Assembly: GCA_963785755.1 (NCBI GenBank)
Contig: CAWAXG010000075.1
Span: forward strand, 676,837 to 740,836
Direction of reading: 5' to 3'
DNA from: an uncultured Acidobacteriota bacterium
GTDB lineage: Bacteria; Acidobacteriota; Vicinamibacteria; Vicinamibacterales; 2-12-FULL-66-21
DNA length: 64,000 bases
In this document: positions 8,578 through 62,759 of the stretch, piece by piece
Layout of the letters: the number at the start of each line of letters is the position of its first letter
Position numbering within the stretch: position 1 is the first letter of the stretch
Notes under the pieces: model-generated
Database searches by the model: none
Told to the model about the DNA's origin: nothing
The model's input: only the letters and a program-made list of their open reading frames with translations
Program-made: the position numbers and the translations under genes

Positions 8578-10162
8578 CTACCTGGTGCCCCCCTTGACGC
8601 TGGGGCTGTCGTCGGCCTGCAGATCGCCGAGCGCGTACTGCATGCCGTAGAGCAGATGCTCCATCATCGACGGGATGGCGTAGACCTTCTCGTTGTGGCC
8701 GTGCGCCATGTAGAAGACGCGCCCCTTGCCGTCGCGCTTGATCCAGCTGAGCGCGTAGTCGCCGTCGGCGCGCGGGGACTGCTCCTTCTTCTTGTCCTCT
8801 TCGCACATCTTCGAATAGTCGACGCTCGTGAGCACGCGGACGTTCTGGCGCGAGTAGGTGTCGCGGCCGAACGTGTAGGTTTCGTCGAAGACGACGACCG
8901 GGCCCTTGACCTTCTTGAAGGGCGCATTGAGCGGATGGTTCGGCTCGTCGATCTTGTAGGTGATCTCCTGGCCGTCGTTCCAGTGGAACTTGAAGAAGCC
9001 GCCGATCATCTTGTTGAACTCCGGCCACGTGCCGATCTGATTGTCGGGGCCCGTCTGTGTTGCCGCCCCCTGATTCGATGGTCCAGTGCAGCCTGGCCGC
9101 GGGGGAGTTGGCGCCGGCGTCGGCGGCGGCGCTGGCCAGAGCGCCGCAAAGCGCGCCGGGAACTCCGCCTGACTCACGCGGCCGGCCTTCGCCGTGTCCA
9201 TCCGGTCGTACCACATGTCGGCGACCGCGCTGAATTCCTCACGGCTCAACCGCTGATCGCTGTTCTTGTCCCCCTGGGCCAGAAGCTGCGCGACGATCGG
9301 CCCGGCCTGACCGCCGCCGTCGCCCGCCGCCGGGTCCACGTCCACCACCGCGTCCCGCTCCGCGGCCCGGACCGCCCGCTGCGGCAGCTGCGGAGCTTCG
9401 ATGGTACGAGTCGCTCGCGGCATGGATGCCGGCGAGTCCTTTGCCGCCGCGCACGAAGTCGAGCAGTGCCTTGCGGCGCGCTTCGGTCGCCGCCGTGTCC
9501 GCCGGATCATCGAGGAAGTGCCCGGTCGTGCTCGACAGGAAGATCGCGTCGTACTGCTTCAGGTTCTGTTCGTTGATGTCCGCGGCGTTGTAGGTCGTCG
9601 TCGCCGTCCACGCGCCCGTCTTCTTCCCCATCTCCTCGATCGTGCGCGCGGCGAGCGGAATCGACGAATGCACGAATCCCGCGGCCCTGCCGAGCACGAG
9701 CACGCGGCGAGCCTGCTTCGGCTTCGCCGGCGCCTTGTCCGGCAGCGCGGCCACCATCGCCGTCACGTCCTGCGGACAGGCGGTCTGCGGATTCGAGCTC
9801 CGGCCGCCGCATTCGGGCCCCTGCGCCGCGGGCGGCGGCCGCCGGCGGGGCTGGCGGCAGCGCCGCGTTCAGACCCGTAGTGAGCTGATCCTGAGCGAGG
9901 CTGCCCGCCTTCGCGCTGTCCCACTCGCCGAACCATCGCTCGAAGGCCGACTTCATCTCGGCGCGCGTCACCGCGCCGTCCTTGTCACCGTCGACCGCCA
10001 GGAAAAACGATGCCGCTCCGGCGCCGCGCGCCGCCGCCCCCGCCGCCCCCGCGCCCCTGCGCCGGCGGAGCCTGCGCGGCGGGAACGACCGCGCCGACGG
10101 CCAGGGCCACCGCCGCACACGCCGCAGCCGCCAGCGCCCCCCTCGAAATCGTCGATCTCATG
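8578..10162 (-). pseudogene. Exported ThuA-like (trehalose-utilisation family) protein with two EF-hand loops; three frameshifts as assembled
   Basis: ATG 10162 gives signal peptide MRSTISRGALAAAAACAAVALAVGA. EF-hand 1 (DGDKDGAVTRAE), the ThuA N-half (RRVLVLGRAAGFVHSSIP...GLAGIHAASDSYH), EF-hand 2 (DKNSDQRLSREE) and the ThuA C-half (WPEFNKMIGGFFKFHW...RVFYMAHGHN) lie in successive reading frames (ORFs 9507..10118, 9239..9766, 8578..9510). Confidence 0.7.
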
Positions 10163-10208
10163 CGTCCTCCTCGAATTGGATCTATGAACCGCCGTCACCT
10201 TCGAATCG

Positions 10209-10272
10209 TGAACTCCGAACCATTTGAACACCGAACTCTTGAAGCCATGAACCTTGAACACCTTGAACCGAC
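10209..10272. repeat. Family B simple-word element, copy B1 (right arm only)
   Basis: Tandem TGAAC words (tgaactcc gaaccatt tgaacacc gaactct tgaagcca tgaacct tgaacacct tgaaccgac). Ends with the family terminus TGAACCGAC directly abutting the stop codon of the next gene. Confidence 0.75.
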
Positions 10273-11637: not shown

Positions 11638-11650
11638 TGTGATGCTCCTT

Positions 11651-11743
11651 GGCAACTCCCAACCTCCAACTCTCAACGCCCAAAGGCGCCGTGCGCCTTG
11701 GTTCGGATGCCTTGGGGGTGGAAGTTGGAAGTTGGTGGTTGAC
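11651..11743. repeat. Family A simple-word hairpin element, copy A2
   Basis: caactcccaacctccaactctcaacgcccaa ... ttgggggtggaagttggaagttggtggttgac. Fills the gap between the dehydrogenase stop (11755) and the Gfo start (11637). Confidence 0.85.
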
Positions 11744-11754
11744 GATATCCGTTT

Positions 11755-17799: not shown

Positions 17800-18897
17800 T
17801 CAGAATCCACGAACGCGGACCCAGAAGCTCTCTTCCCAGGTGCCCCCCGGAGGCACGCTCTGGAGGTCTTTGTAGAGCCCCTTGTGGGCGAGGTTCATTG
17901 CATTCGTGATGCCGACCATCGGCTCGAAGCAGATGTAGTTCCGGTCGCCCGCCCCCTGCCCAGCTCCGGCGCCCGTTCCGGGCTTCGGCTTCGGAGCGTA
18001 AATCACCATCGCACGGTAATTTGGGCCCAAAACCACGTCGAGCTCCTGCGCCTTTCCTTTCAGCGTCATCACCGCCCGGCCGGACCCGTCGCGGGCCAGA
18101 TCGCCAAACACGTGATCCAGGTCGTAGTCCTTCAACGGAATGACTTTCGGATCCGGAAAGAAGGATTCGATCGGCTGGGTTTCCCCGGTCGGCAGGTGGT
18201 TCGCGTCGAGCAGCCAGTGGCTCTTCGCCCCCACCGAAATCGTCCAGTCGTCGCGCATCGAGTCGGTCAGCTGAAAGTACGGATGGAACCCGATCGCGAC
18301 CGGCATCGGGTCCGTGCTCAGGTTGTCGATTCGCGTCGTCACCTGCATCACGCCGTCCTTCAGCGTGTAGGTCATGTCAATCGTGTGGGCAAACGGGAAC
18401 TGTTTGATCCACAGCGGGATTGCGATAGAACTCGAGCCGGCTCGTCGTCCGGGCAGACGTCGCGTCCGCCTTCACGTCCACGACTTTCCACTGGTTGTTG
18501 AAGGTCAGCAGGCCGTGAATCGGGATCTTCCCCCTGACGTTCCCCAGGGTCATGTCGAACTCGTAGCGCTTGCCGTTGGCGTAGAACGCCTGCTCGTCGA
18601 GCCGGTTCGCCCACGGTGCGAGAAAGGGATTGCCGTTGAAGCCGGGGCGCGTCTTGAACTCCTCGATCGAGGCATACGGCCACCGGAGGACGTTGTGCCC
18701 TTTCACCTTCATCTCGAACGCGAGGTTGCCGACCGACGGCAGGATCGAGATCGTCGTCTGATACTTCGAGTCGTGCAGCTCGACGACGTCGCCGGTCTGC
18801 TTCGCGGTGTACTGTTGCGCAGCGGCCGGGGCGGCGACGATCGCGAATGCGGTCACGTCAGAACCACCACTGCGGCCCGCCGTCGTGTCTGCATCAT
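17800..18897 (-). pseudogene. Exported aldose 1-epimerase family protein; two compensating frameshifts as assembled
   Basis: ATG 18897 (MMQTRRRAAVVVL...) and the C-terminal part (17800..18375, ...GFHPYFQL...) share one frame. The middle 18377..18856 (...FLAPWANRLDEQAF...) is in another. The second junction is at a GGG/CCC run near 18413-18418 (RLEFYRNP | LWIKQFPFAHTIDMTYTL). Confidence 0.7.
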
Positions 18898-18947: not shown

Positions 18948-19754
18948 TCAGCGCGCGCCTCGACCGATCTCTTCGGCCGCCTCCTTCAGGATGGGCAGGA
19001 ACTCACGCTGCAACGTCCTGGTTTCGACGCGGCCTGCTTGAACCCCGACGTTGAGCGCCGCCACGACCGCGCCGTCGTGCCGATGGATCGGGACGGCGAT
19101 CGATCGCAGTCCCAGCTCGAGCTCCTGATCGACAATCGCGTGGCCCTGGGCCCGCACGCGATCGATCTCCGCACGGAGCTCTTTCCTGTCCACAATCGTC
19201 CGATCGGTCCGCCGGGTCAGCCTGACTTGCGAGAAGAAACGCACCAGCTGCTCGTTGCTGCCATACGCGAGGAGCACCCGGCCCGATGCCGTGCATGCGG
19301 CGGGCAGGCGGCTGCCGACCGCGATTTCGACCGACAGGATACGCCGGGTCGCGACCCGCGCTACGAAAACTATTTCATCGCGATCGAGCACGGCAACAGC
19401 GGTGGCTTCCTGCAAGCGTCCGGAAACCCGTTCGAGGACGGGCTGTGCTGTCATCGCGATGGATGAGGTCCCGAGATACGCCTGCCCGAGCGCAAGGACG
19501 GCTGGGGTCAGCTCGAAGCCGCCGTTGGCTGGCGCGGCATAGCCCAGGACGTGAAGAGTGTGCAGGCACCGGCGTGCAGACGCACGGGACAGGCCGGTCA
19601 CGGCAGCGACCTCAGCGCCCGAGAGCGGACTCCGCCCTTTCCCGAACGCTCTGATCACTGACAAGCCGCGGGCCAGCGATTCCATGTAGTACGGATCGCT
19701 CGGTCGCGTCTCGCCGGAGGCCGTAAGCGTCACCCCTGAAGCGGAGTCGGGCAT
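18948..19754 (-). CDS. IclR family transcriptional regulator (PcaR/PcaU-like by context)
   Basis: 268 aa from ATG 19754. N-terminal wHTH (SLARGLSVIRAF...VTGLSRASARRCLHTL) and a C-terminal IclR effector domain. Lies about 3 kb from the end of the pca operon. Confidence 0.8.
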   Translation of the reverse strand: MPDSASGVTLTASGETRPSDPYYMESLARGLSVIRAFGKGRSPLSGAEVAAVTGLSRASARRCLHTLHVLGYAAPANGGFELTPAVLALGQAYLGTSSIAMTAQPVLERVSGRLQEATAVAVLDRDEIVFVARVATRRILSVEIAVGSRLPAACTASGRVLLAYGSNEQLVRFFSQVRLTRRTDRTIVDRKELRAEIDRVRAQGHAIVDQELELGLRSIAVPIHRHDGAVVAALNVGVQAGRVETRTLQREFLPILKEAAEEIGRGAR

Positions 19755-20086: not shown

Positions 20087-22601
20087 ATGTTCCCTCGCAC
20101 TCGCCGTCTGCTCGTGGTCATCGGCGTTCTGATCGGTCAGCCCGCGCTGCACGCCTGGTCCCCGTCACTGATGGGTGACCGCGTCGAGTGGGCTGCGGCC
20201 GGCGCGGCCCAGAGCTGCTCCTACAGTCTGTCCGCCACCAGTGCCTCAGTGTCTTCGACCGGAACCACCGCCGGCTCGCTGTCGGTCGTCACCGGCACCA
20301 ACTGTTCCTGGACCTCGGTCAGCCACGACGCGTGGATCACGGTGACAGGTGGCGCGAGCGGAACGGGAATCGGTCAAGTCGCGTACAGCGTCGCCGCGAA
20401 CACGACCGGCGGCCAGCGCGTCGGCACCATGACGATCGCCGGCATGACCTACACGGTGACCCAGAGCGCGACCGGCTGCACGGTCAACCTCTCCGCGACC
20501 AGCGCCTCGGTCCCCTCGACCGGCAGCACCGCGGGCGCGTTGTCCGTCGTCACGGGCACGAGCTGTTCATGGACGGCGGTCAGCAACGCCGCCTGGATCA
20601 CCGTCACGAACGGCGCCAGCGGAACGGGAATCGGTCAGGTCGCGTACACCGTTGCGGCGAACACGACCGGCAGCCAGCGCGTCGGCACCATGACCATCGC
20701 CGGGCAGACCTTCACGGTCACCCAGAGCGGAAGCAGTTGCACGTACAGCCTCTCGGCGACGAGCGCCGCCGTGCCTTCGACCGGCAGCTCCGCCGGCGCG
20801 TTGTCCATCGTCAGCGGCACCAGCTGTTCATGGACGGCGGTCAGCAACGCCGCCTGGATCACCGTCACGAACGGCGCGAGCGGATCCGGAATCGGTCAGG
20901 TCGCGTACACCGTCGCCGCGAACACGACCGGCAGTCAGCGCGTCGGCACCATGACCATCGCCGGGCAGACCTTCACGGTCACCCAGAGCGGAGCCAGTTG
21001 CACCTACAGCCTCTCGGCGACGAGCGCCGCCGTGCCTTCGACCGGCAGCACCGCCGGCGCGTTGTCCATCGTCAGCGGCACCAGCTGTTCATGGACGGCG
21101 GTCAGCAACGCCGCCTGGATCACGGTCACAACGGCGCGAGCGGATCCGGAATCGGTCAGGTCGCGTACACCGTGGCCGCGAACACGACGGGCAGTCAGCG
21201 CGTCGGCACCATGACGATCGCCGGGCAGACCTACACGGTCACCCAGGCCGCCGCCAGTTGCACCTACAGCCTCTCGGCAACGAGCGCCTCCGTGCCTTCG
21301 ACCGGCAGCACCGCCGGCGCGTTGTCCATCGTCACGGGCACGAGCTGTTATGGACGGCCGTCAGCAACGCCGCCTGGATCACGGTCACCAACGGCGCGAG
21401 CGGATCCGGAATCGGTCAGGTCGCGTACACCGTGGCCGCGAACACGACGGGCAGTCAGCGCGTCGGCACCATGACGATCGCCGGGCAGACCTACACGGTC
21501 ACCCAGGCCGCCGCCAGTTGCACCTACAGCCTCTCGGCAACGAGCGCCTCCGTGCCTTCGACCGGCAGCACCGCGGGATCGTTGTCCGTCGTCACGGGCA
21601 CGAGCTGTTCATGGACCGCCGTCAGCAACGCCGCCTGGATCACGGTCACCAACGGCGCGAGCGGATCCGGAATCGGTCAGGTCTCGTACACCGTCGCGGC
21701 GAACACGACCAGCAGCCAGCGAGTCGGGACCATGGCGGTCGCCGGAATTGGGTTCACCGTGACCCAGGCCGCCGCCAGCTGTTCGTACAGCCTCTCCGCA
21801 ACCAGCGCCTCCGTCCCGTCGACCGGCAGCACGGCCGGAGCGGCATCCGTCGTCACGGGCACGAGCTGTTTCTGGAACGCCTTCAGCAGCGCTGCGTGGA
21901 TCACGGTGACGAGCGGCGCGAGCGGAACGGGAATCGGTCAGGTCGCGTACAGCGTTGCGGCGAATACGACCGGCGGTCAGCGCATCGGCACGATGACGAT
22001 CGCGGGGATCACGTTCACCGTTACGCAGGCCGCCGCCAGCTGCACCTACAGCCTCTCGGCAACGAGCGCCTCCGTGCCCTCGACCGGCAGCACCGCGGGC
22101 GCGTTGTCCGTGGTCACGGGCACGAGCTGTTCATGGACAGCCGTCAGCAACGCCGGCTGGATCACGGTCACCAACGGCGCGAGCGGATCCGGAATCGGTC
22201 AGGTCGCGTACACCGTAGCGGCGAATACGACGAGCAGTCAGCGGGTCGGCACCATGACGATCGCCGGGCAGACCTTCACAGTCACCCAGAGTGGAAGCAG
22301 TTGCACGTATAGCCTCTCGGCGACGAGCGCCTCGGTGCCGTCGACCGGCAGCACCGCGGGCGCGCTGTCCGTCGTCACCGGCACGAGCTGTTCGTGGACC
22401 GCGGTCAGCAACGCCGCCTGGATCACGGTCACCAACGGCGCGAGCGGATCCGGAATCGGTCAGGTCGCGTACACCGTAGCGGCGAATACGACGAGCAGTC
22501 AGCGGGTCGGCACCATGACGATCGCCGGGCAGACCTTCACAGTCACCCAGGCCGGCTCGACAACACTCAGCGCGCCGACGGGCCTTCGCGTCGTCAAGTG
22601 A
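20087..22601 (+). pseudogene. Secreted protein of nine tandem BACON-like domains; two 1-nt deletions as assembled
   Basis: ATG 20087 gives signal MFPRTRRLLVVIGVLIGQPALHA. The repeat unit is ~87 aa: SC(T/S)YSLSATSA.VPSTGS.AG.LS.V.GTSCSWTAVSNAAWITVTNGASG.GIGQVAYTVAANTT.SQRVGTMTIAGQTFTVTQ. The frame changes at 21129 (caccaacgg read as cacaacgg) and 21349 (ctgttcatgg read as ctgttatgg), splitting it into ORFs 20000..21214, 20188..21474 and 21258..22601. Confidence 0.75.
20213..22550 (+). repeat. 9 x ~261-bp tandem coding repeat
   Basis: The period is visible directly (e.g. 20741 vs 21001). Runs of about 180 nt are identical between units (21131-21314 vs 21391-21574). Confidence 0.9.
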
Positions 22602-25318: not shown

Positions 25319-25554
25319 CGTCGGTTCAAATGTTCAAGGGTTCAGGAGTTCAGAGGTTCGGGTTCAGGGATTCAACAGTTCGGGTTCAACAGTTCGAGCG
25401 TTCAAGGTTCAGCGATCTCGCCGCTGATCTCTCGAATCTTGGACATCTGAACCTGAACCCCTGAACCCCGAAGCCTTGAACCTGAACATCTGACCCCCCG
25501 AACCCTTGAACCCGAACCTCTGAACCCTTGAACTCTTGAACCATTGAACCGACG
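25319..25554. repeat. Family B simple-word palindrome, copy B2
   Basis: CGTCGGTTCA + ~12 GTTCR words (25319-25411), a 34-nt loop, ~13 TGAAC words, then TGAACCGACG (25446-25554). The outer ~45 nt of the arms are well complementary. Fills the gap between the FadB-like stop (25569) and the ligase start (25304). Confidence 0.9.
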
Positions 25555-31519: not shown

Positions 31520-32617
31520 TCAACCCCACACCTCCTTCGCGACCAGCCCGACGAGCTCGAGCTTCCGCCGCTGATCGTCCGGCGACACGCTGTTTCCCTC
31601 GTGCGTCGACGCGAAGCCGCACTGAGGGCTCAACGCCAGCCGTTCGAGGGGAACAATCTTCGAGGCCTCGGCAATGCGGGTCCGGATCTCCTCCTGGCTC
31701 TCGAGACGCGGCACCTTGGTGCTGATCAATCCGAGCACGACAATGCGGTCGTCCGGGACGTGGCGCAGAGGCTCGAACGTGCCCGACCGTTCATCGTCGT
31801 ACTCGAGCAGGAACCGATCGAACCTGGCGCGGGTGAAGATCCGCGCCGCGATCCGGTCGTAGCCGCCCGACGCGTAGAACATGCTCTTGTGATTGCCGCG
31901 GCAGATGTGGATGCCGAAGGTGATGCCGGGGTGGCCCTCGATGATCGCGTTGTCGAGCTCGATGCACGCGTCGAGCATACGATCCGGATCGTTGCCGCGC
32001 TGCCGGTAGCCCTCGCGGATGTTCTCGTCGAGCAGCGCCGCGTACTGCGGCGCGTCGATCTGGACGTATTCGCAGCCGAGGCGGCCGAGCTCCGCGATCT
32101 CGCGACGGGTGAAATCGACGAGGTCCGCGAGATACGCGTCGCGCGTGGCGTAGGCACTGCGCGACCGGTCGGGATCGTAGTAGGCGGCGGCCTGCTGCGC
32201 GCTGATCAGCGTCACCTTCACGGGCCGGCGGGTCCGGCCGCGCAGGTAGGTGAACTCCTCGACGGCCATCTGCCGGCGCCATCGGAGCCTGTCCACGACC
32301 ACCGGCCGTTTCAACGCGGCCTGATGGCCGTCGTTGTCCCGGAACGTAATCGACCACCCCGCGTATTTGTCGAAGCCTTCGAGCGCCTCGACGAGGTGAC
32401 CGTAGAACGCGTAGCGCCGCAGCTCGCCGTCGGTGATCACATCGAGGCCGGCGGATTCCTGCAGCGCGACCGCCTCGTCTATTGCGCGATCCTCAATCGC
32501 CTTGAACGCGGCCGCGCCCAGTTCGCCGCGCTCGAGCTGGTCGCGCGCGGCGAGAAGGCTGGCCGGCCGAAGCAGGCTGCCGACGACGTCGGCTCTCCTG
32601 GAATGCTGCATCACCAT
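31520..32617 (-). CDS. MetE-like (cobalamin-independent methionine synthase C-terminal domain family) Zn methyltransferase homologue
   Basis: About 365 aa from ATG 32617 (the ORF opens at 32638, inside element B3). Candidate Zn ligands are retained: H-x-C in FGIHICRGN, Glu in LLEYDDE, Cys in LSPQCGFAS. Confidence 0.7.
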   Translation of the reverse strand: MVMQHSRRADVVGSLLRPASLLAARDQLERGELGAAAFKAIEDRAIDEAVALQESAGLDVITDGELRRYAFYGHLVEALEGFDKYAGWSITFRDNDGHQAALKRPVVVDRLRWRRQMAVEEFTYLRGRTRRPVKVTLISAQQAAAYYDPDRSRSAYATRDAYLADLVDFTRREIAELGRLGCEYVQIDAPQYAALLDENIREGYRQRGNDPDRMLDACIELDNAIIEGHPGITFGIHICRGNHKSMFYASGGYDRIAARIFTRARFDRFLLEYDDERSGTFEPLRHVPDDRIVVLGLISTKVPRLESQEEIRTRIAEASKIVPLERLALSPQCGFASTHEGNSVSPDDQRRKLELVGLVAKEVWG

Positions 32618-32627
32618 ACGCGATCTT

Positions 32628-32797
32628 CGTCGGTTCAAAGGTTCAGGAGTTCAAGCGGTTCGGGTTCAGGGGTTCAGCGGTTCAAGGGTTCGACAGGGTT
32701 CAGAGGTTCAACCTCCCGCGCGAACTCTCGAACGACTGAACCTGAACCTCTGAACCCGAACCCGTGAACGCCTGAACTGCTGAACGCTTGAACCGAC
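32628..32797. repeat. Family B simple-word palindrome, copy B3
   Basis: CGTCGGTTCA + ~10 GTTCR words, loop cctcccgcgcgaactctcgaacgac, then TGAAC words ending TGAACCGAC. Fills the gap between the pcaF stop (32802) and the MetE-like start. Confidence 0.9.
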
Positions 32798-32801
32798 TCC
32801 A

Positions 32802-34013
32802 TCAGACCTTTTCAATCACCATCGCAATTCCCTGTCCCACGCCTATGCACATCGTGCACAGCGCATAGCGGCCGCCGAGGCGCCGGAGCTGATACATCGC
32901 CGTCGTGACCAGCCGCGCGCCGCTGGCGCCGAGGGGGTGGCCGATCGCAATCGCTCCGCCGAGCGGGTTCACATGCGGGGCATCGTCTGGAACGCCCAGT
33001 TCCCGGAGGACGGCGAGCGCCTGCGCCGCGAACGCCTCGTTCAACTCGATGACATCCATCTGATCGATCCGCAGGCCGGCGCGATCGAGCAGCTTTCGCG
33101 ACGCCGGCACCGGTCCGATCCCCATGACACGGGGAGCGACTCCCGCGACCGCCGCCGCGACGTATCGCGCCCGGGGGCGAAGGCTGTATTCCGTCACCGC
33201 CTTTTCCGAAGCAAGCAGCAGCGCGCAGGCACCGTCATTGATGCCCGACGCGTTGCCGGCGGTCACCGAGCCGTCGGGCCGGACGACGGGCTTGAGCTTC
33301 GAGAGCGCCTCGCGGGTCGTGTCGGGACGCGGGTGCTCATCGGTCTCGACGTTGACGGCCCCCTTGCGCTGATGGACGCTGACCGGAACGATTTCATCGG
33401 CGAGCCGGCCGTCGGCGATCGCCGCCGCCGCGCGCTGCTGGCTGCGAAACGCGAACGCGTCCTGATCCTCGCGGGACACGCCGTACGCCGCGGCGACGTT
33501 CTCCGCCGTTTCGGCCATCGAGTCGATGCCGTACGCCTCCTGCATCCGGGGATTGACGAACCGCCAGCCGAGCGTGCTGTCTTCGAACTTGATCGAACGG
33601 GAGAACGGCGCGTCGGTCTTGCTCATGACGAACGGCGCCCGCGACATGCTCTCGACACCGCCGGCGACAACCAGATCCATTTCACCCGTGGCAATCGCCC
33701 GGGCGGCGATCGCGACTGCCTCCAGGCTGGACCCGCAGAGCCGGTTGACCGTCACGCCGGGCACATCCTCGGGAAGCCCCGCGAGCAGCAACGCCATCCG
33801 CGCGACGTTCCGGTTGTCCTCGCCAGCCTGATTGGCGCAGCCATAGATCACGTCATCGATCCGGTGCCAGTCGACCCGGGAGTTGCGATGACGGAGCGCC
33901 TGAATGGGCACCGCGGCGAGATCATCGGTGCGAACGCCGGCGAGTGCCCCGCCATACCGTCCGAACGGGGTCCGCACCGCATCGCAGATATACACTGCAT
34001 TCGAGTCGGGCAT
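32802..34013 (-). CDS. pcaF: 3-oxoadipyl-CoA thiolase / acetyl-CoA C-acyltransferase
   Basis: 403 aa. N-terminus [29 protein letters not shown] and [22 protein letters not shown] are typical of PcaF/PaaJ thiolases. Active-site NRLCGSS and C-terminal CIGVGQG. Confidence 0.85.
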
Positions 34014-34030
34014 TGTCTCCTCATGGATCT

Positions 34031-34296
34031 CGTCGGTTCAGTAGTTCAAGGGTTCAAGGGTTCACGGGTTCGGGTTCAGAGGTTCAAAGGTTCGATTCAG
34101 CGTTCAAAGGTTCAAAGGTTCGATGCGGTTGCTCGAGCGACCGCGCGCCAGCGAGCGCGGCTGAGTTCCAGTTGAACATTTGAACCACGGACGCCGAACC
34201 TGAACTCTTGAACCTTGGAACTCTTGAACTCTTGAACCTTGAACCTTGAACCCTTGAACCCTTGAACCCTTGAACCCCTGAACCTTTGAACCGACG
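34031..34296. repeat. Family B simple-word palindrome, copy B4 (largest)
   Basis: CGTCGGTTCA + ~11 GTTCR words (to ~34125), a 45-nt GC loop with its own small stem (ccgcgc...gcgcgg), then ~14 TGAAC words ending TGAACCGACG. Occupies most of the divergent region between pcaF (start 34013) and the cytochrome c gene (start 34347). Confidence 0.9.
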
Positions 34297-34346
34297 ACAA
34301 TCCAGCATCGTACAACCGCCCCGATTGTCTGTATCATCGAGTTGAA

Positions 34347-35465
34347 ATGAGCATCAGGATTCCCCACCGAATATGGCGTGCGGGCTCGCTCGTCGGACTG
34401 GCTCTGGTCACTCTGGTCTGGGCGTCCGGATTGGCGCAGGAAACGGCGAAGCCGGCGCAGGTGTCGACAGAGGATGCCCGCGGTCAGGAGACCTTCCTGC
34501 GGGTCTGTTTGAAGTGCCACCCGGCGGAACGCGTGACCGCCGAGGGGCGATCGCGCTCGCAATGGGAAAACACGATGATCGCGATGCAGACTTCGCGCGG
34601 CGCCGTGATCACACCGGAAGAGTTCGACATCGTCTTGAACTACCTGACGAAGTTTCACGGACGGGATGGCGCGCCAGCTCCGGGCGGAGCTGCGCCGGCG
34701 GCGGCCGGGCGTGGGCCGCGCGCGAACGTCGGCGCGGCGGACCGGCATCGTGTGGAACCAGCCGCTGCCGCGCGCGGCCAGAAGATCTACGCCGCCGAGT
34801 GCGTCACGTGTCACGGTGCGAGCGCGCGCGGAACCGAGCGCGGGCCGAACCTGATCCGATCGACCAGGGTCCTGCGCGACCGCTACGGCAGCGCGATTGG
34901 CCCGCTGCTCAAGCAGGGCCACCCCATGCAGACCGCGACGTCGAGCGCCAGCCTGACGACGGAGCAGATCACCGATCTCTCCCACTTCATCTGGGATCGC
35001 ATCAATAACACGCTGCGAGGATCCCCGGAGTTCGACGTCAAGAACGTCCTGAGCGGGGACCCAAAGGCCGGCGAGGCCTATTTCACGGGCGAAGGCCGCT
35101 GCAGCACGTGTCACTCGTCGACCGGCGACCTCGCGGGCTACGGCAAGCGCTATCAGCCGGTCGACATCCAGCAGCGCTTCGTCTTCCCGTTTGCGCTCGG
35201 TGGGCGCGGCCGGGGCGCAGGCCGACAGCAGGTCGTCGTCACGGTGACGATTCCCGGCCGGCCGCCGGTCTCGGGCGTCCTCGTCAGCATGGACGACTTC
35301 CACGTCGCGCTGCGCGATTCGGCCGGCGACTACAGGTCGTGGGCCCGCACGGACGACATGAAGATCGCGAGAAAAGACCCGTTCGCCGCGCACGTGGAGC
35401 TGCTCGACCGCCTCACGGACAAGACCATGCACGACGTCGTCGCTTATCTGGAGTCGTTGAAATGA
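34347..35465 (+). CDS. Exported tri-haem c-type cytochrome
   Basis: 372 aa. Signal peptide ...LVTLVWASGLAQE. Three CxxCH motifs (CLKCH, CVTCH, CSTCH). Directly upstream of a PQQ dehydrogenase. Confidence 0.8.
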   Translation: MSIRIPHRIWRAGSLVGLALVTLVWASGLAQETAKPAQVSTEDARGQETFLRVCLKCHPAERVTAEGRSRSQWENTMIAMQTSRGAVITPEEFDIVLNYLTKFHGRDGAPAPGGAAPAAAGRGPRANVGAADRHRVEPAAAARGQKIYAAECVTCHGASARGTERGPNLIRSTRVLRDRYGSAIGPLLKQGHPMQTATSSASLTTEQITDLSHFIWDRINNTLRGSPEFDVKNVLSGDPKAGEAYFTGEGRCSTCHSSTGDLAGYGKRYQPVDIQQRFVFPFALGGRGRGAGRQQVVVTVTIPGRPPVSGVLVSMDDFHVALRDSAGDYRSWARTDDMKIARKDPFAAHVELLDRLTDKTMHDVVAYLESLK

Positions 35466-35485: not shown

Positions 35486-35605
35486 GTCCTCAACTCCCAA
35501 CTCTCCAACTTCGCCCCGCCTCCGCGCAGCGCGATCGGCATCGACGCGTCGCCGGAGCGCGGCGGAGAATCGGCGAGTTGGGAGTTATCGCAGACTCTTG
35601 TTGAC
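35486..35605. repeat. Family A simple-word hairpin element, copy A4
   Basis: Left arm gtcctcaactcccaactctccaacttcgcc, a ~55-nt GC loop, and a short right arm ggcgagttgggagtt. A GTTGAC word at 35600-35605 overlaps the TTG start codons of the next gene. Confidence 0.7.
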
Positions 35606-37178
35606 AGCCCTGGCCTTCGTCGCAGCCGCCTCCATGCTGGTGAGCGCCCAGGGCCGCATGGATCCCGCGAAGCTGCTGAAGCCGGCGACCGACAGCTGGC
35701 CGACGTTCAATGGTGATTACTCCGGCCGGCGCTTCAGCCCGCTGACGAAGATCACGAACGGCAACGTGCAGCAGCTGAGTCTCGCGTGGATGCACCGGAT
35801 CACCGGCACGGGGCTGGGCGCCATCAAGAGCACACCGCTGCAGATCAACGGCGTCCTCTACTTCACCGTACCCGATCACGTCTGGGCCGTCGACGCCCGC
35901 ACCGGCCGCGAGATCTGGCACTACCAGTGGCAGACGACCGGCGGCAACCATCTGGGCAACCGCGGCGTCGCGGTGCACGAGGACTGGCTCTATTTCGAGA
36001 CGCCCGACTGCTTCCTCATCTCGCTGAACCTCAAGGACGGCAAGGAACGCTGGCGCAAGCAGATCTGCGACATCGACCGCTTCTACTACGCGTCGGTCGC
36101 GCCGACGATCATCAAGGATCAGCTGATCGTGGGCGTCAGCGGCGACGACTTCGATATCCCGGGCTACATCCAGTCGCACAACGCGGAGAGCGGCGAGTTC
36201 CAGTGGCGGTTCTATACCGTTCCGCAGAAGGCGGGCGATCCCGGATCGGAGAGCTGGCCGAACGAGGAGATGGCCAGGCACGGCGGCGGCATGACGTGGC
36301 AGCCGATCACCTACGACCCCGAGCTCAACTACGTCTTCGTGACCACCGGCAACCCGCAGCCGGTGATCGCGCACAAGAACCGCCCCGGCGACAATCTGTT
36401 CACCGGCTCGATCGTCGCGGTGCGCGCCGACTCCGGCTCATTGGCGTGGGCGTTCCAATCCTCACCGCACGACACGCACGACTGGGACTCGACGCAGACG
36501 GCGGTCTTGATCGACGACGAAGCCGGCGGACAGAAGCGCAAGCTGATTGCCCAGGCCGCCCGGAACGGCCACTACTTCCTGCTCGATCGCACCAACGGCA
36601 AAGCGATCGTCTCCGCTGAGTACGTCAAGAGCAACTGGTGGAAAGGCTACGACGCCAAGGGTCAGCCGATTCCCGACCCCGCCAAGATGCCGCAGGTCGA
36701 CGGCGCACTCGTGTCGCCGAACCAGGGCGGCGCGACCAACTGGCAATCGCCCAGCTTCAGCCCGCTGACCGGCCTGTTCTACGTGAGCGCCGCGCGCGCC
36801 TACAGCATCTATTACATCTACGACCCGAGCGAGAACCCGATGGGATGGGGCGGATTCGATCGCGGCGGCTGGTCCGAGTCGATGCTCCAGGCGATCGACT
36901 ACAAGACCGGCAAGGTTCGCTGGACGCACAAATGGGAGGGCAACGCGGCGCGCAGCGGGATCGTCAGCACCGCCGGCAACGTGCTGTTCACCGGCGGTCC
37001 CTCCAACGACATCGTCGCGCTCGACGCCACGACCGGAAAGGCGCTCTGGCATGCCGGCATCAACGGCCCGATCACGAATGGCCCTATTACCTACGAGCTC
37101 GATGGACGGCAGTACGTGATCGCTGCGTCGGGAGATACTCTTTGGGCGTTCGTGCTCAACTCCACGCCGTCGAAGTGA
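35598..37178 (+). CDS. PQQ-dependent dehydrogenase (quinoprotein alcohol/sugar dehydrogenase beta-propeller)
   Basis: 526 aa. TTG start (35598 or 35601), with no ATG/GTG upstream in frame. Signal-like LTALAFVAAASMLVSAQG. N-terminus WPTFNGDYSGRRFSPL and repeated propeller W-motifs. N-terminus uncertain. Confidence 0.8.
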   Translation: MLTALAFVAAASMLVSAQGRMDPAKLLKPATDSWPTFNGDYSGRRFSPLTKITNGNVQQLSLAWMHRITGTGLGAIKSTPLQINGVLYFTVPDHVWAVDARTGREIWHYQWQTTGGNHLGNRGVAVHEDWLYFETPDCFLISLNLKDGKERWRKQICDIDRFYYASVAPTIIKDQLIVGVSGDDFDIPGYIQSHNAESGEFQWRFYTVPQKAGDPGSESWPNEEMARHGGGMTWQPITYDPELNYVFVTTGNPQPVIAHKNRPGDNLFTGSIVAVRADSGSLAWAFQSSPHDTHDWDSTQTAVLIDDEAGGQKRKLIAQAARNGHYFLLDRTNGKAIVSAEYVKSNWWKGYDAKGQPIPDPAKMPQVDGALVSPNQGGATNWQSPSFSPLTGLFYVSAARAYSIYYIYDPSENPMGWGGFDRGGWSESMLQAIDYKTGKVRWTHKWEGNAARSGIVSTAGNVLFTGGPSNDIVALDATTGKALWHAGINGPITNGPITYELDGRQYVIAASGDTLWAFVLNSTPSK

Positions 37179-37195
37179 TGACGATGACTGAAGAC

Positions 37196-37356
37196 GTCAA
37201 CTTCCAACTCCCAATCTCCAACTCCCAACTTCCAAAGCGAATGGCTCGTAGCATTGGGGTGAAAATCGCAGCGATCTACCCGATTGCACCGGCTTTCACC
37301 CAGGCGAGTTCCGGCGACTCGCTTTGGGAGTTGGAGATCGGGAGTTGGGAGTTGAC
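37196..37356. repeat. Family A simple-word hairpin element, copy A5
   Basis: gtcaacttccaactcccaatctccaactcccaacttccaaagcga (37196-37240), a 77-nt loop, then tcgctttgggagttggagatcgggagttgggagttgac (37318-37356). The arms differ by one hexamer unit. Ends 13 nt before ATG 37369. Confidence 0.9.
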
Positions 37357-37368
37357 GAGAGTGCACCT

Positions 37369-44693: not shown

Positions 44694-44895
44694 GCCACGT
44701 GCAACGTGCCACGGGCTACGTGCGCACGTGCTGTCGTGCCACGCTGCCACGTGCGCACGTGCATTTTGTGCGCACGTGCATTTTGTGCTCACGTGCTTAC
44801 GTGCTTGTGCTCACGTGCTTTGTGCCCGTCGCACGTAGCACGCAGGACGTAGCACGAAAAGCACGTGAGCACTCAGCGCGTGGCACGCGGCACGT
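44694..44895. repeat. Family C simple-word palindrome (ACGTGC / CACGTG words), copy C1
   Basis: About 15 GTGC-words at ~8-nt spacing (44694-44830), then an opposed GCAC-word arm (44831-44895) ending in TTTT on the plus strand. Fills the whole convergent gap 44694-44898. Confidence 0.85.
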
Positions 44896-44898
44896 TTT

Positions 44899-45474
44899 CT
44901 ACTTCTCCGCGGGCGGACAGCTGCCTGACGCCTCACGCACCGAGACGACCTCGAACTCCTTCAGGTTGAGGTCCTGTCCCGCCGGATCGACCTTGCCACC
45001 CGGCGTTGCGGGTTGAGCGGCCGCCCCTTCGGCGGAATCCTTGATCTTTCCGACGATCTCCACCTTCTTACCCACGTGCTGCTCGGCCTGACCCTCGCCG
45101 GGTCCCGTCAATTCATAGGCCTCGCCAGCGGCGCCGCTCGTGCCGACGGCTTCTGGTGTCGCGGGTCTTTCGGCTGACGCCGTGGCGCCCGTCGAAACGG
45201 TCGCGTTCACGAGGACGAACTCATTGGCCGCCCCTGCGCCGGTCCCGGCCGCGCCTCCGGCGCCTGCACTCTTCGCGCGGCGGTAATCCGCTTCGCGCTG
45301 CACGCACCCGACGATCGTCATCTGCGGCTGAGCCGCGGCGGGCGCTGGCTCTTGCGCGGCGGGCGCACCGCCCGCGGGCGGCGCAGTAGGCTGCTGTGTC
45401 GCCTGCGCGAACACAGCCATACTCATGGCCAGCACAGCTGCTGAACACGTCGCGCCTGTAATCAATCGGTTCAT
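44899..45474 (-). CDS. Exported Ala/Gly/Pro-rich hypothetical protein
   Basis: 191 aa from ATG 45474. Signal MNRLITGATCSAAVLAMSMAVFAQA, low-complexity middle, structured C-terminus (KKVEIVGKIKD...LNLKEFEVVSV). Confidence 0.55.
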   Translation of the reverse strand: MNRLITGATCSAAVLAMSMAVFAQATQQPTAPPAGGAPAAQEPAPAAAQPQMTIVGCVQREADYRRAKSAGAGGAAGTGAGAANEFVLVNATVSTGATASAERPATPEAVGTSGAAGEAYELTGPGEGQAEQHVGKKVEIVGKIKDSAEGAAAQPATPGGKVDPAGQDLNLKEFEVVSVREASGSCPPAEK

Positions 45475-53384: not shown

Positions 53385-54712
53385 ATGTCTGACAGCCGCA
53401 AACGCCGATTTCCCTTGCTCCCGTGGGTGTTGCTGGCTGCCGGCCTGGTCATTGGCGCGGGCGATGGGCCCCGACAGACGCAGTACGCCGGCCGCGCAAA
53501 CCGACGCGGCGGCGAGCGGCAGCGGCGGCATCAATCGCCCGGAGCACCGCGACAAGGCCCATCTGATTCTGATCTCGTTCGACGGATTTCGCGCAGATTA
53601 CTTCGATCGGTTCGACCTGCCGAACATCCGCCGCGTACTCCGGCGCGGGGTGCGCGCACCGAGCGATGATCCCGGTGTTTCCGTCCGTGACGTTTACGAA
53701 CCATTACTCGCTGGTGACCGGCCTCTATCCCGAGCGCCACGGCATCGTCGCCAACAGCTTCTACGATCCGGGACGCAAGGCCAGCTATTCGTTTCGCGAC
53801 CAGAAGACAGTTACCGATGGCACCTGGTATCGCGGCGAGCCGATCTGGGTGACCGCCGAGTCGCAGGGCATGGTGTCGGCCTGTTTCTTCTGGCCTGGAT
53901 CGGAAGCCGCGATCAAAGGCATCCGCCCGACGCATTGGAACACATACGATTCGAACGTCCCGAACAACACACGGATGGAGAGCGTGCTCGGCTGGCTGCG
54001 CCTGCCGGACGAGAGCCGCCCTCACGTCATCACCACGTATTTCGCCGATCTCGATGCGGCATCCCACCGCGGCAGGCTCGATGGCGCCGGTATCGGGGAG
54101 GCCCTGACCTCGCTCGACCGCACCCTCGGGCTGCTCCTCGACGGCATCGAGGCCCTGCCGATACGCGATCGCGTGTACGTCCTGCTCACGTCGGACCATG
54201 GAATGGTGGAAACGGCGGCGTCACGAACCGTTCTGATCGGATCGCTCGTGGACTCGGCAACCGTCCGGGTCGGATTCGCCGGAGCGGTGGCGAGCCTGCA
54301 CGTGTCTGGCGGTCCGGATCAGGCGCTGAAAACGCGGGACCAGGCCAACGCCCAACTGAAGAACGGCCGCGCTTATCTGCGAGCAGAACTGCCGGAGCGG
54401 TACCATTACCGGGCCGATCCTCGAGCTGGCGACGTCGTGATTGTGATGGACGAGGGCTGGACAGCCGAGACGTCGATCATCTCGAAGCTTCGCATCGTCG
54501 GACCATGGGGCGAACATGGCTGGGATCCGGCGCTGCAGTCCATGCGCGCGATCTTCGCCATTGCCGGCCCAGGCCTGCGGGAGGGAATCACGATTCCGGA
54601 GGTCGACAGCGTCGACGTCTATCCGCTGATGACCGAGCTCCTGGGCTTGCGCGCAGCGGACGGCATCGACGGGCGCGCGGACCGGATACGCCGTCAGATC
54701 CTTCGTAATTGA
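53385..54712 (+). pseudogene. Ectonucleotide pyrophosphatase/phosphodiesterase (NPP, alkaline-phosphatase superfamily); two frameshifts as assembled
   Basis: Signal peptide from ATG 53385. HLILISFDGFRADY is in the frame of ORF 53377.., and MIPVFPSVTFTNHYSLVTGLYPERHGIVAN...LTSDHGM in ORF 53666..54712. Junctions are at the C4 run 53469-53472 and near 53660-53666. Confidence 0.75.
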
Positions 54713-54770: not shown

Positions 54771-54829
54771 GGGAATCGGGACTCGGGACTGGGGCTGGTC
54801 TCGGGATCGGGGATCAGGATCGGGGAATT
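54771..54829. repeat. GGGATC/GGGACT-word tandem spacer (element D)
   Basis: gggaatc gggactc gggactg gggctggtctc gggatc ggggatcag gatc ggggaatt. About 7-nt period, one orientation only. Lies 80 nt upstream of ATG 54908. Confidence 0.7.
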
Positions 54830-59524: not shown

Positions 59525-60976
59525 TCAGAGGTTCAAATCGATCCAGACCGCCTTGACCTGCGTGTAGTGCTCGAGCGCGTGCGCGCTCATTTCGCGGCCG
59601 AACCCGCTCTGCTTGTATCCACCGAACGGTGCGGCGGTGTCGTAGACGTTGTAGGTATTCACCCACACCGTGCCGGCCTGCAGCTTCTTCGCCACGTAGT
59701 GCGCCTTCTTGATGTCGCGGGTCCAGACGCCGGCCGCGAGTCCGTACTGGCTCTCGTTCGCCTTCGCAATGGCCTCGTCCAGGTCCGCGAACTCGATCGC
59801 GGCCAGGACCGGCCCGAAGATCTCCTCGCGCGAAATCGTCATCTCGGACTTGACGTCGGCGAAGACGGTCGGCTGGACGAAATAACCCTTGCCGGTGCCG
59901 ATGTCGGCGCGTTGACCGCCGGCCATGAGCGTCGCCCCTTCGCGCTTCCCCGATTCGATGTAGCCGAGCACGGTGTCGAGCTGCTTCTTCGAAGAGATCG
60001 CGCCGAAGCGAGTCTTGGGATCCATCGGGTCGCCAGGCACCATCTTCTTCGCCCGGGCCGCGAGCTTGTCGAGAAACTCGTCCTTGATGGAACGGTCGAC
60101 CAGGAGCCTGGAGCCGGCGGCGCAGACCTCCCCCTTGCCGTAGAAGATGCCGATGGTGGCGCCGCGGACCGCGGCCTCCATGTCGGCGTCCGGCAGCACG
60201 ATGTTGGGGGATTTTCCGCCGAGCTCCAGCGTGATCTTCTTGAGCGTGTCGGCGGCGCTCCTCATGATCGACTTCCCGGTGCCGGTATCGCCGGTGAAGG
60301 CGACCTTGTCGATCCCCGGATGCTCCACAATCGCCTGGCCGACCGTCGATCCCGGACCGGTGATGACGTTCAGCACGCCCGGGGGCAGTCCCACTTCCAC
60401 GGCGATCTCGCCGAGTGCCAGGGCCGTGAGCGGAGTCTGGCTCGCGGGCTTGAGGATCACCGTGTTGCCGCAGGCCAGGGCGGGCGCCACTTTCCAGGCC
60501 GCGAGCAGCAGCGGGAAGTTCCACGGCACGATGGCGGCAACGACCCCGACCGGCTCGCGCAGCGTGTAGGTGAGATGGTTACCCTTGACCGGGATCGTCT
60601 CACCCATCAACTTGTCCGACCAGCCGCCGTAATACTCGAAGCACTCGGCCGCCGCCGGGATCTCGATCTGCCGTGACTCCGTGATCGGCTTGCCGTTGTG
60701 CAGGGTTTCGAGCCGCGCGACATGGTCCGCCCGCTCCATCAACCGGTCGCCGAGCTTCCGCACCAGGCGCCCGCGCTCGCGCGCGGACATCGCGCTCCAC
60801 GGCCCGGCCAGCGCCGCTCGCGCCGCCGCCACCGCGGCATCGACATCGGACGCGTTCGCCGCCGCGACCTCGGCAATCACCTCTTCGGTCGCGGGATTCA
60901 CCACCGGCATCGTCTGTCCGGACGACGAGCCGCGCCATTCGTTGTTGATGAAGAGAGCTCCAGCCTGCGACGTCAA
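59525..60976 (-). CDS. NAD(P)-dependent aldehyde dehydrogenase (BoxD-like by position)
   Basis: About 483 aa from TTG 60976 (MTSQAGALFINNEW...). The ORF opens at 61006 inside element A6. Catalytic motifs LELGGKSP and GEVCAAGSRLLV. Confidence 0.8.
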   Translation of the reverse strand: MTSQAGALFINNEWRGSSSGQTMPVVNPATEEVIAEVAAANASDVDAAVAAARAALAGPWSAMSARERGRLVRKLGDRLMERADHVARLETLHNGKPITESRQIEIPAAAECFEYYGGWSDKLMGETIPVKGNHLTYTLREPVGVVAAIVPWNFPLLLAAWKVAPALACGNTVILKPASQTPLTALALGEIAVEVGLPPGVLNVITGPGSTVGQAIVEHPGIDKVAFTGDTGTGKSIMRSAADTLKKITLELGGKSPNIVLPDADMEAAVRGATIGIFYGKGEVCAAGSRLLVDRSIKDEFLDKLAARAKKMVPGDPMDPKTRFGAISSKKQLDTVLGYIESGKREGATLMAGGQRADIGTGKGYFVQPTVFADVKSEMTISREEIFGPVLAAIEFADLDEAIAKANESQYGLAAGVWTRDIKKAHYVAKKLQAGTVWVNTYNVYDTAAPFGGYKQSGFGREMSAHALEHYTQVKAVWIDLNL

Positions 60977-61127
60977 CTCGCTCAGCTCCCAACTCCCGAC
61001 TCCCAAGAAGCATCAGTCGAACGAGCTGGGTGGAATACGTGACAACGAGCTCTCCGAGTACGACTTTCACCCGGCGCTGTCGAACCTCGCGCGTTGGCAG
61101 TTGGGAGTTGGGAGTGTGGGAGTTGAC
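60972..61127. repeat. Family A simple-word hairpin element, copy A6
   Basis: gtcaactcgctcagctcccaactcccgactcccaa (60972-61006), an ~87-nt loop, then ttggcagttgggagttgggagtgtgggagttgac (61094-61127). Fills the boxB-ALDH gap. The terminal GTCAAC contains the probable TTG start on the minus strand. Confidence 0.85.
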
Positions 61128-61136
61128 GTCATGTCG

Positions 61137-62555: not shown

Positions 62556-62556
62556 T

Positions 62557-62676
62557 CACGTGCTCCGTGCTACGTGCTGGGTGCGAACGTGCCTCGTGCT
62601 ACATGCACACGTGCGGACGTGCCGATCGTGCTACGGGCTACGTGCGGACGTGCTTTTGTGCTACGTGCTTCGTGCC
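62557..62676. repeat. Family C simple-word array, copy C2 (single orientation)
   Basis: About 13 GTGC words at ~8-nt spacing (cacgtgct ccgtgct acgtgctgg gtgcga acgtgcct cgtgct ...), directly abutting the boxB start codon. Followed by an 8-bp stem cttccggc/gccggaag (62693-62712). Confidence 0.8.
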
Positions 62677-62759
62677 TCTCGCTACCTCGTGGCTTCCGGC
62701 TTCAGCCGGAAGGACCGTGCCCTTGCCGGAAGACTCTGGGCTTCAGCGGTCGACCATGA

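Follow-up and report, generated by a model that had tools for sequence, protein, structure and literature searches.

What a 266-nt palindrome is doing between two divergent genes is the question raised by the spacer that separates pcaF, the 3-oxoadipyl-CoA thiolase gene (positions 32802 to 34013, minus strand; TIGR02430, 707 bits), from the gene for a tri-haem c-type cytochrome (34347 to 35465, plus strand; three CxxCH motifs and a signal peptide). The first-pass annotation of the 64-kb window (the whole stretch of DNA that was analyzed) had described this palindrome, element B4, as the largest copy of a repeat family B, had placed both promoters inside or across it, and had proposed it as a multi-site target for an IclR regulator of the PcaR type. 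The description stood in detail. B4 is real; it occupies 266 of the 333 nt of the spacer (80%), leaves exactly 17 nt on the pcaF side and 50 nt on the cytochrome side, and exceeds the other three B copies of the window in size. The PcaR/PcaU/PobR-type IclR regulator at 18948 to 19754 was likewise confirmed, on the minus strand. The regulatory proposal was not supported. We consider it probable that B4 is a noncoding, foldback-type dispersed repeat located in the pcaF leader rather than a PcaR operator, and the most likely account of it is a tolerated insertion in that leader, one copy of a fast-changing family of hairpin repeats.

B4 (34030 to 34297) is an imperfect palindrome of 8-nt words, TCGTCGGTTCA...TGAACCGACGA, evident from its sequence (TCGTCGGTTCAG...CTGAACCGACGA over the same interval), from a repeat finder, and from folding. 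The left arm (34031 to 34124, plus strand; 94 nt) consists of 11 tandem GGTTCRNN words and the right arm (34172 to 34296, plus strand; 125 nt) of 14 NNYGAACC words. Counted over both arms, GTTCR occurs 11 times in the left half and YGAAC 14 times in the right, and neither arm holds a word in the opposite orientation, in keeping with the roughly 25 words first reported; the repeat finder returned the reported tandem period of 8. Between the arms lies a nonword spacer of about 47 nt (34125 to 34171) with two small G+C hairpins, which is not conserved in the allele of contig L201 (see below). The repeat finder put complementarity at 88% for the outer arms at 34030 to 34071 and 34256 to 34297 (42 nt) and at 81% for longer, 59-nt arms. 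Allowing at most one mismatch, the word pair GGTTCRNNGGTTC has 43 matches in the window against 2.68 expected, a number reached by none of 100 shuffles. The 333-nt spacer is predicted to fold with −158.6 kcal/mol on the plus strand and −171.2 kcal/mol on the minus strand, corresponding to z of about −12 versus shuffles on both strands.

Copies of family B share this plan, each consisting of degenerate 8-nt words (a GTTCA core and two to three variable bases) set in two arrays of opposite orientation, with ends capped by (C)GTCGGTTCA. In B4, motif search and arm alignment placed the terminal 9-mer GTCGGTTCA at 34032 to 34040 (plus strand) and at 34287 to 34295 (minus strand). The 9-mer has seven matches in the window, all at ends of B1 to B4, where 0.61 would be expected, and it forms a terminal inverted repeat at both ends of B2, B3, B4, and an element on L052, a MAG contig from another assembly, which adjoins a DUF3089 gene and not pca genes. 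B3 (32628 to 32797) fills the spacer between pcaF and a MetE-like gene, 4 nt from the pcaF stop codon. B2 (25319 to 25554) lies between a FadB-like gene and an acyl-CoA synthetase gene, and B1 (10184 to 10272), just downstream of the stop codon of a GFO/IDH/MocA oxidoreductase gene, comprises a right arm only, with the same terminus. A Shine–Dalgarno sequence plus ATG at 10161 (minus strand), considered as the start of a gene beside B1, was rejected, being in frame with no ORF of at least 60 aa. Three of the four B copies (B2, B3, and B4) lie along the string of pca/β-oxidation genes.

In an alignment of nine arms the terminus is invariant, and its nonword GTCG is identical at all seven ends in the window and in L052. 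Five of the six full arms contain the short 6-nt word GGTTCG followed by GGTTCAG at words 4 to 5; the outer part of the left arm of B4 is homologous to the arms of B2 and B3 and carries the same pair at words 5 to 6. Within the words, G2, the TTC core, and A6 are nearly invariant, and positions 1, 7, and 8 are variable. The words are 8 nt long in 47 of 73 cases and mostly 6 to 7 nt in the remainder, and the arrays are intergenic. The B copies are recognizably alike only in the outer ~45 nt of their arms; beyond this distance they have only the word consensus in common.

Family B is one of several such families. In the 64 kb there are four copies of B, five of A, and two of C, most of them flanked by genes of the same direction. 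Families A and C repeat the B architecture with unrelated words, and almost all of their copies fill short spacers a few nucleotides from start or stop codons. Family A (866 to 970, 11649 to 11745, 35488 to 35590, 37193 to 37359, and 60969 to 61131) has CAACTCC/GGAGTTG heptamer arms, longer unique centers, and ends that are often CGTCAAC...GTTGACG. The spacers it fills include those of the operon formed by the cytochrome and a homolog of quinoprotein dehydrogenases (the "acido-empty quinoprotein," 35598 to 37178, plus strand); an A-like left arm is found at the equivalent cytochrome–quinoprotein spacer of contig L205. Family C (44694 to 44900 and 62556 to 62680 in the window; 2777 to 2935 of contig L207) consists of arrays of the self-complementary word CACGTGC(T), which fold as hairpins without an inverted partner; the L207 array occupies the spacer orthologous to the pcaF–cytochrome spacer. 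Across MAGs of Acidobacteriota and Desulfobacterota, the GTTC array precedes the GAAC array at 28 loci and follows it at three. The Desulfobacterota MAGs (L017, L020, L058, L066, and L085) carry a separate GGTTCA/TGAACC family with the conserved arm end GAACCCGTGAACGGTTAC and no Rfam match; in L020, L066, and L085 the arrays adjoin a stretch of about 150 nt that, by eye, is conserved between MAGs. No identical acyl-CoA synthetase or quinoprotein entries were on record that could provide further alleles of B2, A3, and A4. A literature search for the word strings returned no paper, and we found none that describes these acidobacterial elements.

We then compared the pcaF–cytochrome spacer with its counterparts in relatives, taking as orthologous those contigs found via cytochrome homologs in which the divergent thiolase/cytochrome pair is conserved. 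The spacer is element-free in L204 (cytochrome identity 80%; 70 nt), L205 (78%; 108 nt), and L208 (79%; 25 nt). In L206 (84%) it is a palindrome of GGTTCTAG words and in L207 (80%) a direct array of the self-complementary word CACGTGCT; both arrays fold as hairpins. L201 (100%) carries a shorter allele of the B element. Against L201, the window shows identities of 98.2% in pcaF and 99.55% in the cytochrome gene, both free of indels, but of only 77% in the spacer, where the alignment has 56 gap positions. The left arm of the window allele is longer by about three words, its center differs, and a block of 31 nt (four words) in its right arm is missing from L201. L202 and L203, short-read contigs that encode the same cytochrome, both end within the right arm and exhibit further word variants. 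Whole-word blocks are gained or lost in B4 at a much higher rate than changes accumulate in the flanking genes. Together, the element-free relatives and the word-block differences from L201 indicate that B4 is recent, lineage-specific, and hypervariable, and that pca control does not include it as a conserved component. Pca loci generally have no array of this kind: none was found at 80 metagenomic loci around pcaF homologs of 69 to 77% identity, relatives that are too distant to serve as empty-site controls.

The relatives without B4 keep one-armed arrays (of CTTCTGA, GTCCCGN, CACTCCTC, and a 13-mer) beside the pcaF stop codon and elsewhere (L205, 2640 to 2681 and 7679 to 7748; L208, 2688 to 2775; L204, 2680 to 2720), so word arrays as such are common in the lineage. 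L208 has almost no spacer at the sites equivalent to B3 and A3. At the B3 site, pcaF and the MetE-like gene are separated by an esterase gene in L201 (1148 to 2487) and L205 (957 to 2683); the corresponding interval of the window (32611 to 32801) contains only B3, and the absence of the esterase gene may reflect an element-associated deletion. The hexamer CCGACG at the right border of B4 (34290 to 34295) also occurs in the empty site of L205 (3917 to 3922) and beside the C-type array of L207 (2937 to 2942), in both at a similar distance upstream of an (A)TC(G/C)TACAAC motif as in the window. Part of the B terminus may therefore be a pre-existing target sequence.

Two motifs persist across the orthologous spacers, ATCGTACA(A/C) and TGTATCATCGAG, and in the window both fall within the 50-nt cytochrome-side flank (34297 to 34346), outside B4. 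The first, ATCGTACAAC at 34307 to 34316, is conserved whether or not a spacer carries an element; its reading on the pcaF strand is TGTACGAT, with a −10-like TACGAT, and we regard it as a candidate core-promoter block. The second, TGTATCATCGAG at 34330 to 34341 (plus strand), includes a conserved −10-like TATCAT (34332 to 34337) 9 nt upstream of the cytochrome ATG. TATCAT stands 9 to 10 nt before this ATG in the window, L201, L205, and L206, and TATTAT takes its place in L207, which suggests a cytochrome promoter with a very short leader, outside B4. A scan of both strands from 33800 to 34600 for consensus sigma-70 promoters and terminators detected nothing. The cytochrome start used here, giving 372 aa, is backed by full-length homologs and is the one called in the JGI and NCBI versions. 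The ENA call shortens the protein to 266 aa (1564 to 2364 of L001, about 34650 to 35450 of the window) and includes a spurious 48-aa ORF (2400 to 2546 of L001, about 34468 to 34614 of the window) that lies in the uncalled part of the true cytochrome coding sequence, near its start and outside B4.

On the other side, the 17-nt flank (34014 to 34030, minus strand) carries the pcaF Shine–Dalgarno sequence GAGGAG (the complement of 34017 to 34022) and is the same in L201; pcaF has no Shine–Dalgarno sequence in L204 or L208. Because only these 17 nt separate the pcaF start codon from B4, transcription of pcaF starts inside B4 or crosses it. The claim that both promoters lie inside or across the palindrome thus survives for pcaF transcription, whereas the conserved promoter-like motifs are outside B4. 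In L208, the TGTACGAT motif is 8 nt from the pcaF ATG; with 25 nt between its two start codons, the promoters of L208 must overlap coding sequence. In every array-bearing relative, the array lies between the TGTACGAT/ATCGTACAAC motif and pcaF.

We propose that B4 arrived or expanded between the pcaF start codon and the conserved core-promoter block that would now occupy the 50-nt right flank. Insertion on the pcaF side of this block would have left the cytochrome promoter untouched. The pcaF mRNA would start at or beyond the right border of B4 and include all of it in a leader of about 285 nt, which is predicted to fold on itself (about −150 to −170 kcal/mol) and to bring its 5′ end back beside the ribosome-binding site. 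Such a self-folding leader, returning the 5′ end to the ribosome-binding site, would explain why B4 is tolerated. Growth of the element is probably by replication slippage of words.

Mobility of the family is inferred only from the shared ends and the shared word order, given that neither a target-site duplication nor a transposase was found. The ends of B2, B3, and B4 are not bordered by direct repeats; the window proteins scanned, which represent most but not all of the window, gave no Pfam match to a transposase or RAYT; and no transposase was found between distant arrays. Distant GGTTC/GAACC pairs in L024 and L039 were considered as a possible autonomous element and discarded: they enclose a cytochrome, an alcohol dehydrogenase, and an HbpS-like protein, with no transposase. 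Two features of the B copies speak against the foldback-type reading. The restriction of their similarity to the outer ~45 nt is unlike typical MITE families, and the location of three of four copies along the pca/β-oxidation string could reflect function rather than local spread.

Among known systems, the closest published parallel to B4 is provided by the intergenic heptamer arrays of Xanthomonas (GGGAATC) and Nostoc (PMC4692102). About 70 of the Xanthomonas arrays form inverted pairs, and array length varies between close relatives (Rehm et al. 2015, PMC4692102). Family B, like these arrays, consists of tandem words of 6 to 9 nt confined to intergenic DNA and is unlinked to particular gene functions or IS elements (PMC4692102). 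In both systems, convergent pairs on opposite strands could form stem-loops, with the same polarity at 28 of the 31 paired loci examined here, and close relatives differ in array length and sequence but retain the repeat type (the window versus L201, L202, and L203). The differences are a B unit of 8 nt with the core GTTCA, the presence of several unrelated word families per genome, and the conserved nonword termini and shared word order of family B. The host differs as well, being probably an acidobacterium, to which the acido-empty quinoprotein match and a homolog labeled Acidobacteria point. A direct array of G-rich heptamers (GGGAATC, GGGACTC, and GGGGATC), the first being the Xanthomonas unit of Rehm et al. 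2015, also occurs in the window, at 54771 to 54826, and contains a canonical G-quadruplex motif.

The likeness to REP, BIME, and REPIN sequences is that of intergenic palindromes that lie mostly between co-directional genes, are probably transcribed, and, to judge from the 64 kb covered, may be abundant. REP units are 20 to 40 bp long, with stems of 8 to 9 bp and loops of 4 to 5 nt, and the CGTC-tagged REPs have no dedicated transposase (Di Nocera et al. 2013, PMC3733652). B2, B3, B4, and the L052 element begin with CGTCGG, and A3, A4, and A5 begin with CGTC(C/A), which may be coincidence. Membership in the CGTC-tagged class was rejected on unit size and stem length, the arms of B4 measuring 94 and 125 nt around a center of about 47 nt. 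A 266-nt palindrome with tandem-word arms is likewise unlike REP or REPIN elements, and no RAYT gene was seen. B2, B3, B4, and the L052 element resemble MITEs in their terminal inverted repeats and differ from them in that no target-site duplication is present at B2, B3, or B4. What family B has in common with Foldback/Galileo elements is a noncoding element of 100 to 300 bp that combines inverted and conserved ends, arms of tandem short repeats, a variable interior, and high turnover. Family B differs from them in showing no target-site duplication, autonomous partner, or evidence of a transposition event, and Foldback elements are, as far as our literature search found, confined to eukaryotes.

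The strongest competing explanation, which we regard as possible but unlikely, is that the hairpin itself is selected at the RNA level, with REP/BIME-like stem-loops setting mRNA half-life or RNase III processing and the pcaF leader tuning translation. Position within a few nucleotides of stop or start codons between co-directional genes would suit such a role, as would the occurrence at the orthologous site of three sequence-unrelated arrays (B, GGTTCTAG, and CACGTGCT words) that are all hairpin-capable; yet other relatives manage without a spacer at these sites. In a search of the window and 10 related loci, no Rfam family reached its gathering threshold, and a subthreshold match of B4 to a plant miRNA precursor (18.9 bits versus a cut-off of 297 bits) is meaningless. 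The arms themselves give a mixed picture. Both were lengthened together relative to L201, and in L052 and L206 variant words are common to the two arms, but arm complementarity within an element (0.76 to 0.81) is no higher than between elements (0.76 to 0.83). By our own estimate, this is approximately the level expected from five fixed and three variable positions per word. Furthermore, the transcribed strand is the more stable one in just three of the eight elements of known direction, and G–U pairs are few on both strands. Since complementarity does not exceed the between-element level and no consistent strand preference emerges, we see neither base-by-base compensation nor strand-specific RNA selection.

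An explanation without mobility, in which a 7- to 8-nt unit slips in place, template switching occurs at the resulting quasi-palindrome, and the copies resemble each other by convergence, appears unlikely. Neither transposase nor target-site duplication stands in its way, and the word-block indels between strains, as well as the many one-armed arrays with other words carried by relatives, are what slippage would produce; slippage has also been proposed as the cause of the over-representation of heptamer repeats in bacterial intergenic DNA (PMC4692102). Convergence, however, leaves unexplained why the nonword GTCG should be identical at seven ends in the window and in L052, why the same short word should occupy the same position in five of six arms, and why polarity should be biased 28:3. 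Because slippage fails to account for the shared terminus, the word order, and the polarity, some copying between sites is needed.

We consider it improbable that the words are sites for a dedicated protein, either nucleoid-associated or an end-bound transposase, that organizes the DNA, or that the G-rich arms act by forming G-quadruplexes. The position-specific conservation of the words (G2, A6, and the TTC core versus variable positions 1, 7, and 8) and their constant polarity relative to the ends would fit protein recognition, but no candidate protein was found, each unrelated word family would need its own partner, and phasing of 8 bp puts successive sites on different faces of the helix. 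As for quadruplexes, B4 has a canonical motif (G3N3-5 ×4) built from GGGTTCAN words at 34050 to 34074 (plus strand) and a mirror motif at 34251 to 34278 (minus strand, motif scan). Each strand has one in its 5′ arm, and the pair makes up two of only five canonical motifs across the 64 kb. The same scan found none in B2, B3, or families A and C. Among families A to C, G-quadruplex potential is confined to B4 and, unlike in the G-tract units of Xanthomonas, appears incidental.

The weakest candidate is the one first put forward, that B4, together with B2 and B3, is a multi-site operator for the PcaR-type IclR protein whose GTTCR half-sites control both divergent promoters. Operators of PcaR, PcaU, and PobR are 15 to 21 bp long and consist of inverted half-sites, GTNCG-N5-6-CGNAC, some with a third box (PMC8222616); the PcaU box is TTTGTTCGATWATCGMACAMA, PcaU requires an extra direct half-site, and tandem IclR sites are spaced 18 to 22 nt apart (PMC8222616). 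Although the half-site GTTCG/CGAAC is close to the word core GTTC(A/G), two B4 words do read GGTTCGAT as reported (at 34089 and 34117), and B4 adjoins pcaF with B2 and B3 along the same pca-associated string, an operator function is highly improbable, as the inverted arrangement has no match in the spacer (34014 to 34346) and occurs elsewhere in the window at chance level, no GTTCGATNATCGAAC match rises above chance, and direct words in each arm recur every 8 nt instead of 18 to 22 nt. In addition, the spacer of L204, L205, and L208 has no B4 and that of L207 has CACGTGCT words in its place, neither B1 nor the L052 copy adjoins pca genes, almost identical strains carry different numbers of words, and the B plan recurs with unrelated words in families A and C. 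The resemblance of GTTC(A/G) to the half-site is the only remaining support for an operator. No obvious operator was found upstream of pcaR itself. Elsewhere in the window, GTTCGACCTGCCGAAC at 53610 to 53625, in the divergent spacer between DUF4159 and phosphodiesterase genes, is a perfect palindrome of the IclR-group type (GTTCG-N6-CGAAC) and fits an IclR box better than anything in B4.

For this locus, the analysis disposes of an attractive but mistaken regulatory model and predicts for pcaF an mRNA whose leader, about 285 nt long, folds on itself. More broadly, the acidobacterial B elements are a variation on a type of intergenic repeat already published, and the class is of more interest than the B4 copy. 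In some soil Acidobacteriota, and with their own family in Desulfobacterota, about half of the intergenic spacers are filled by hypervariable, hairpin-forming word arrays. Such arrays break short-read assemblies, as shown by L202 and L203, which end inside one, and they mislead gene callers, an example being the shortened cytochrome call. They could also be used as strain markers, given that almost identical strains differ in word number. Possibly, though not probably, families A, B, and C belong to a so far undescribed prokaryotic class of foldback-type mobile elements, which an enzyme would spread through Acidobacteriota and Desulfobacterota and which would prefer operon spacers and leaders. 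Short recognition words in arrays would form their ends, each capped by a conserved terminus, with several families per genome and fast turnover by word slippage; operon spacers and leaders would be preferred because the elements fold away in the transcript. If a dispersal enzyme exists, these elements would constitute a new kind of bacterial mobile element.

Two further observations concern coding sequence on either side of the regulator gene. The adjacent minus-strand ORFs at 17800 to 18375 and 18377 to 18856 match the C-terminal and N-terminal parts, respectively, of aldose 1-epimerase; a single gene probably underlies both, interrupted by a frameshift or through an assembly error. From 20216 to 22554, nine tandem units of 261 nt (88% matches) are coding and correspond to BACON-domain repeats in the ORF at 21258 to 22601.
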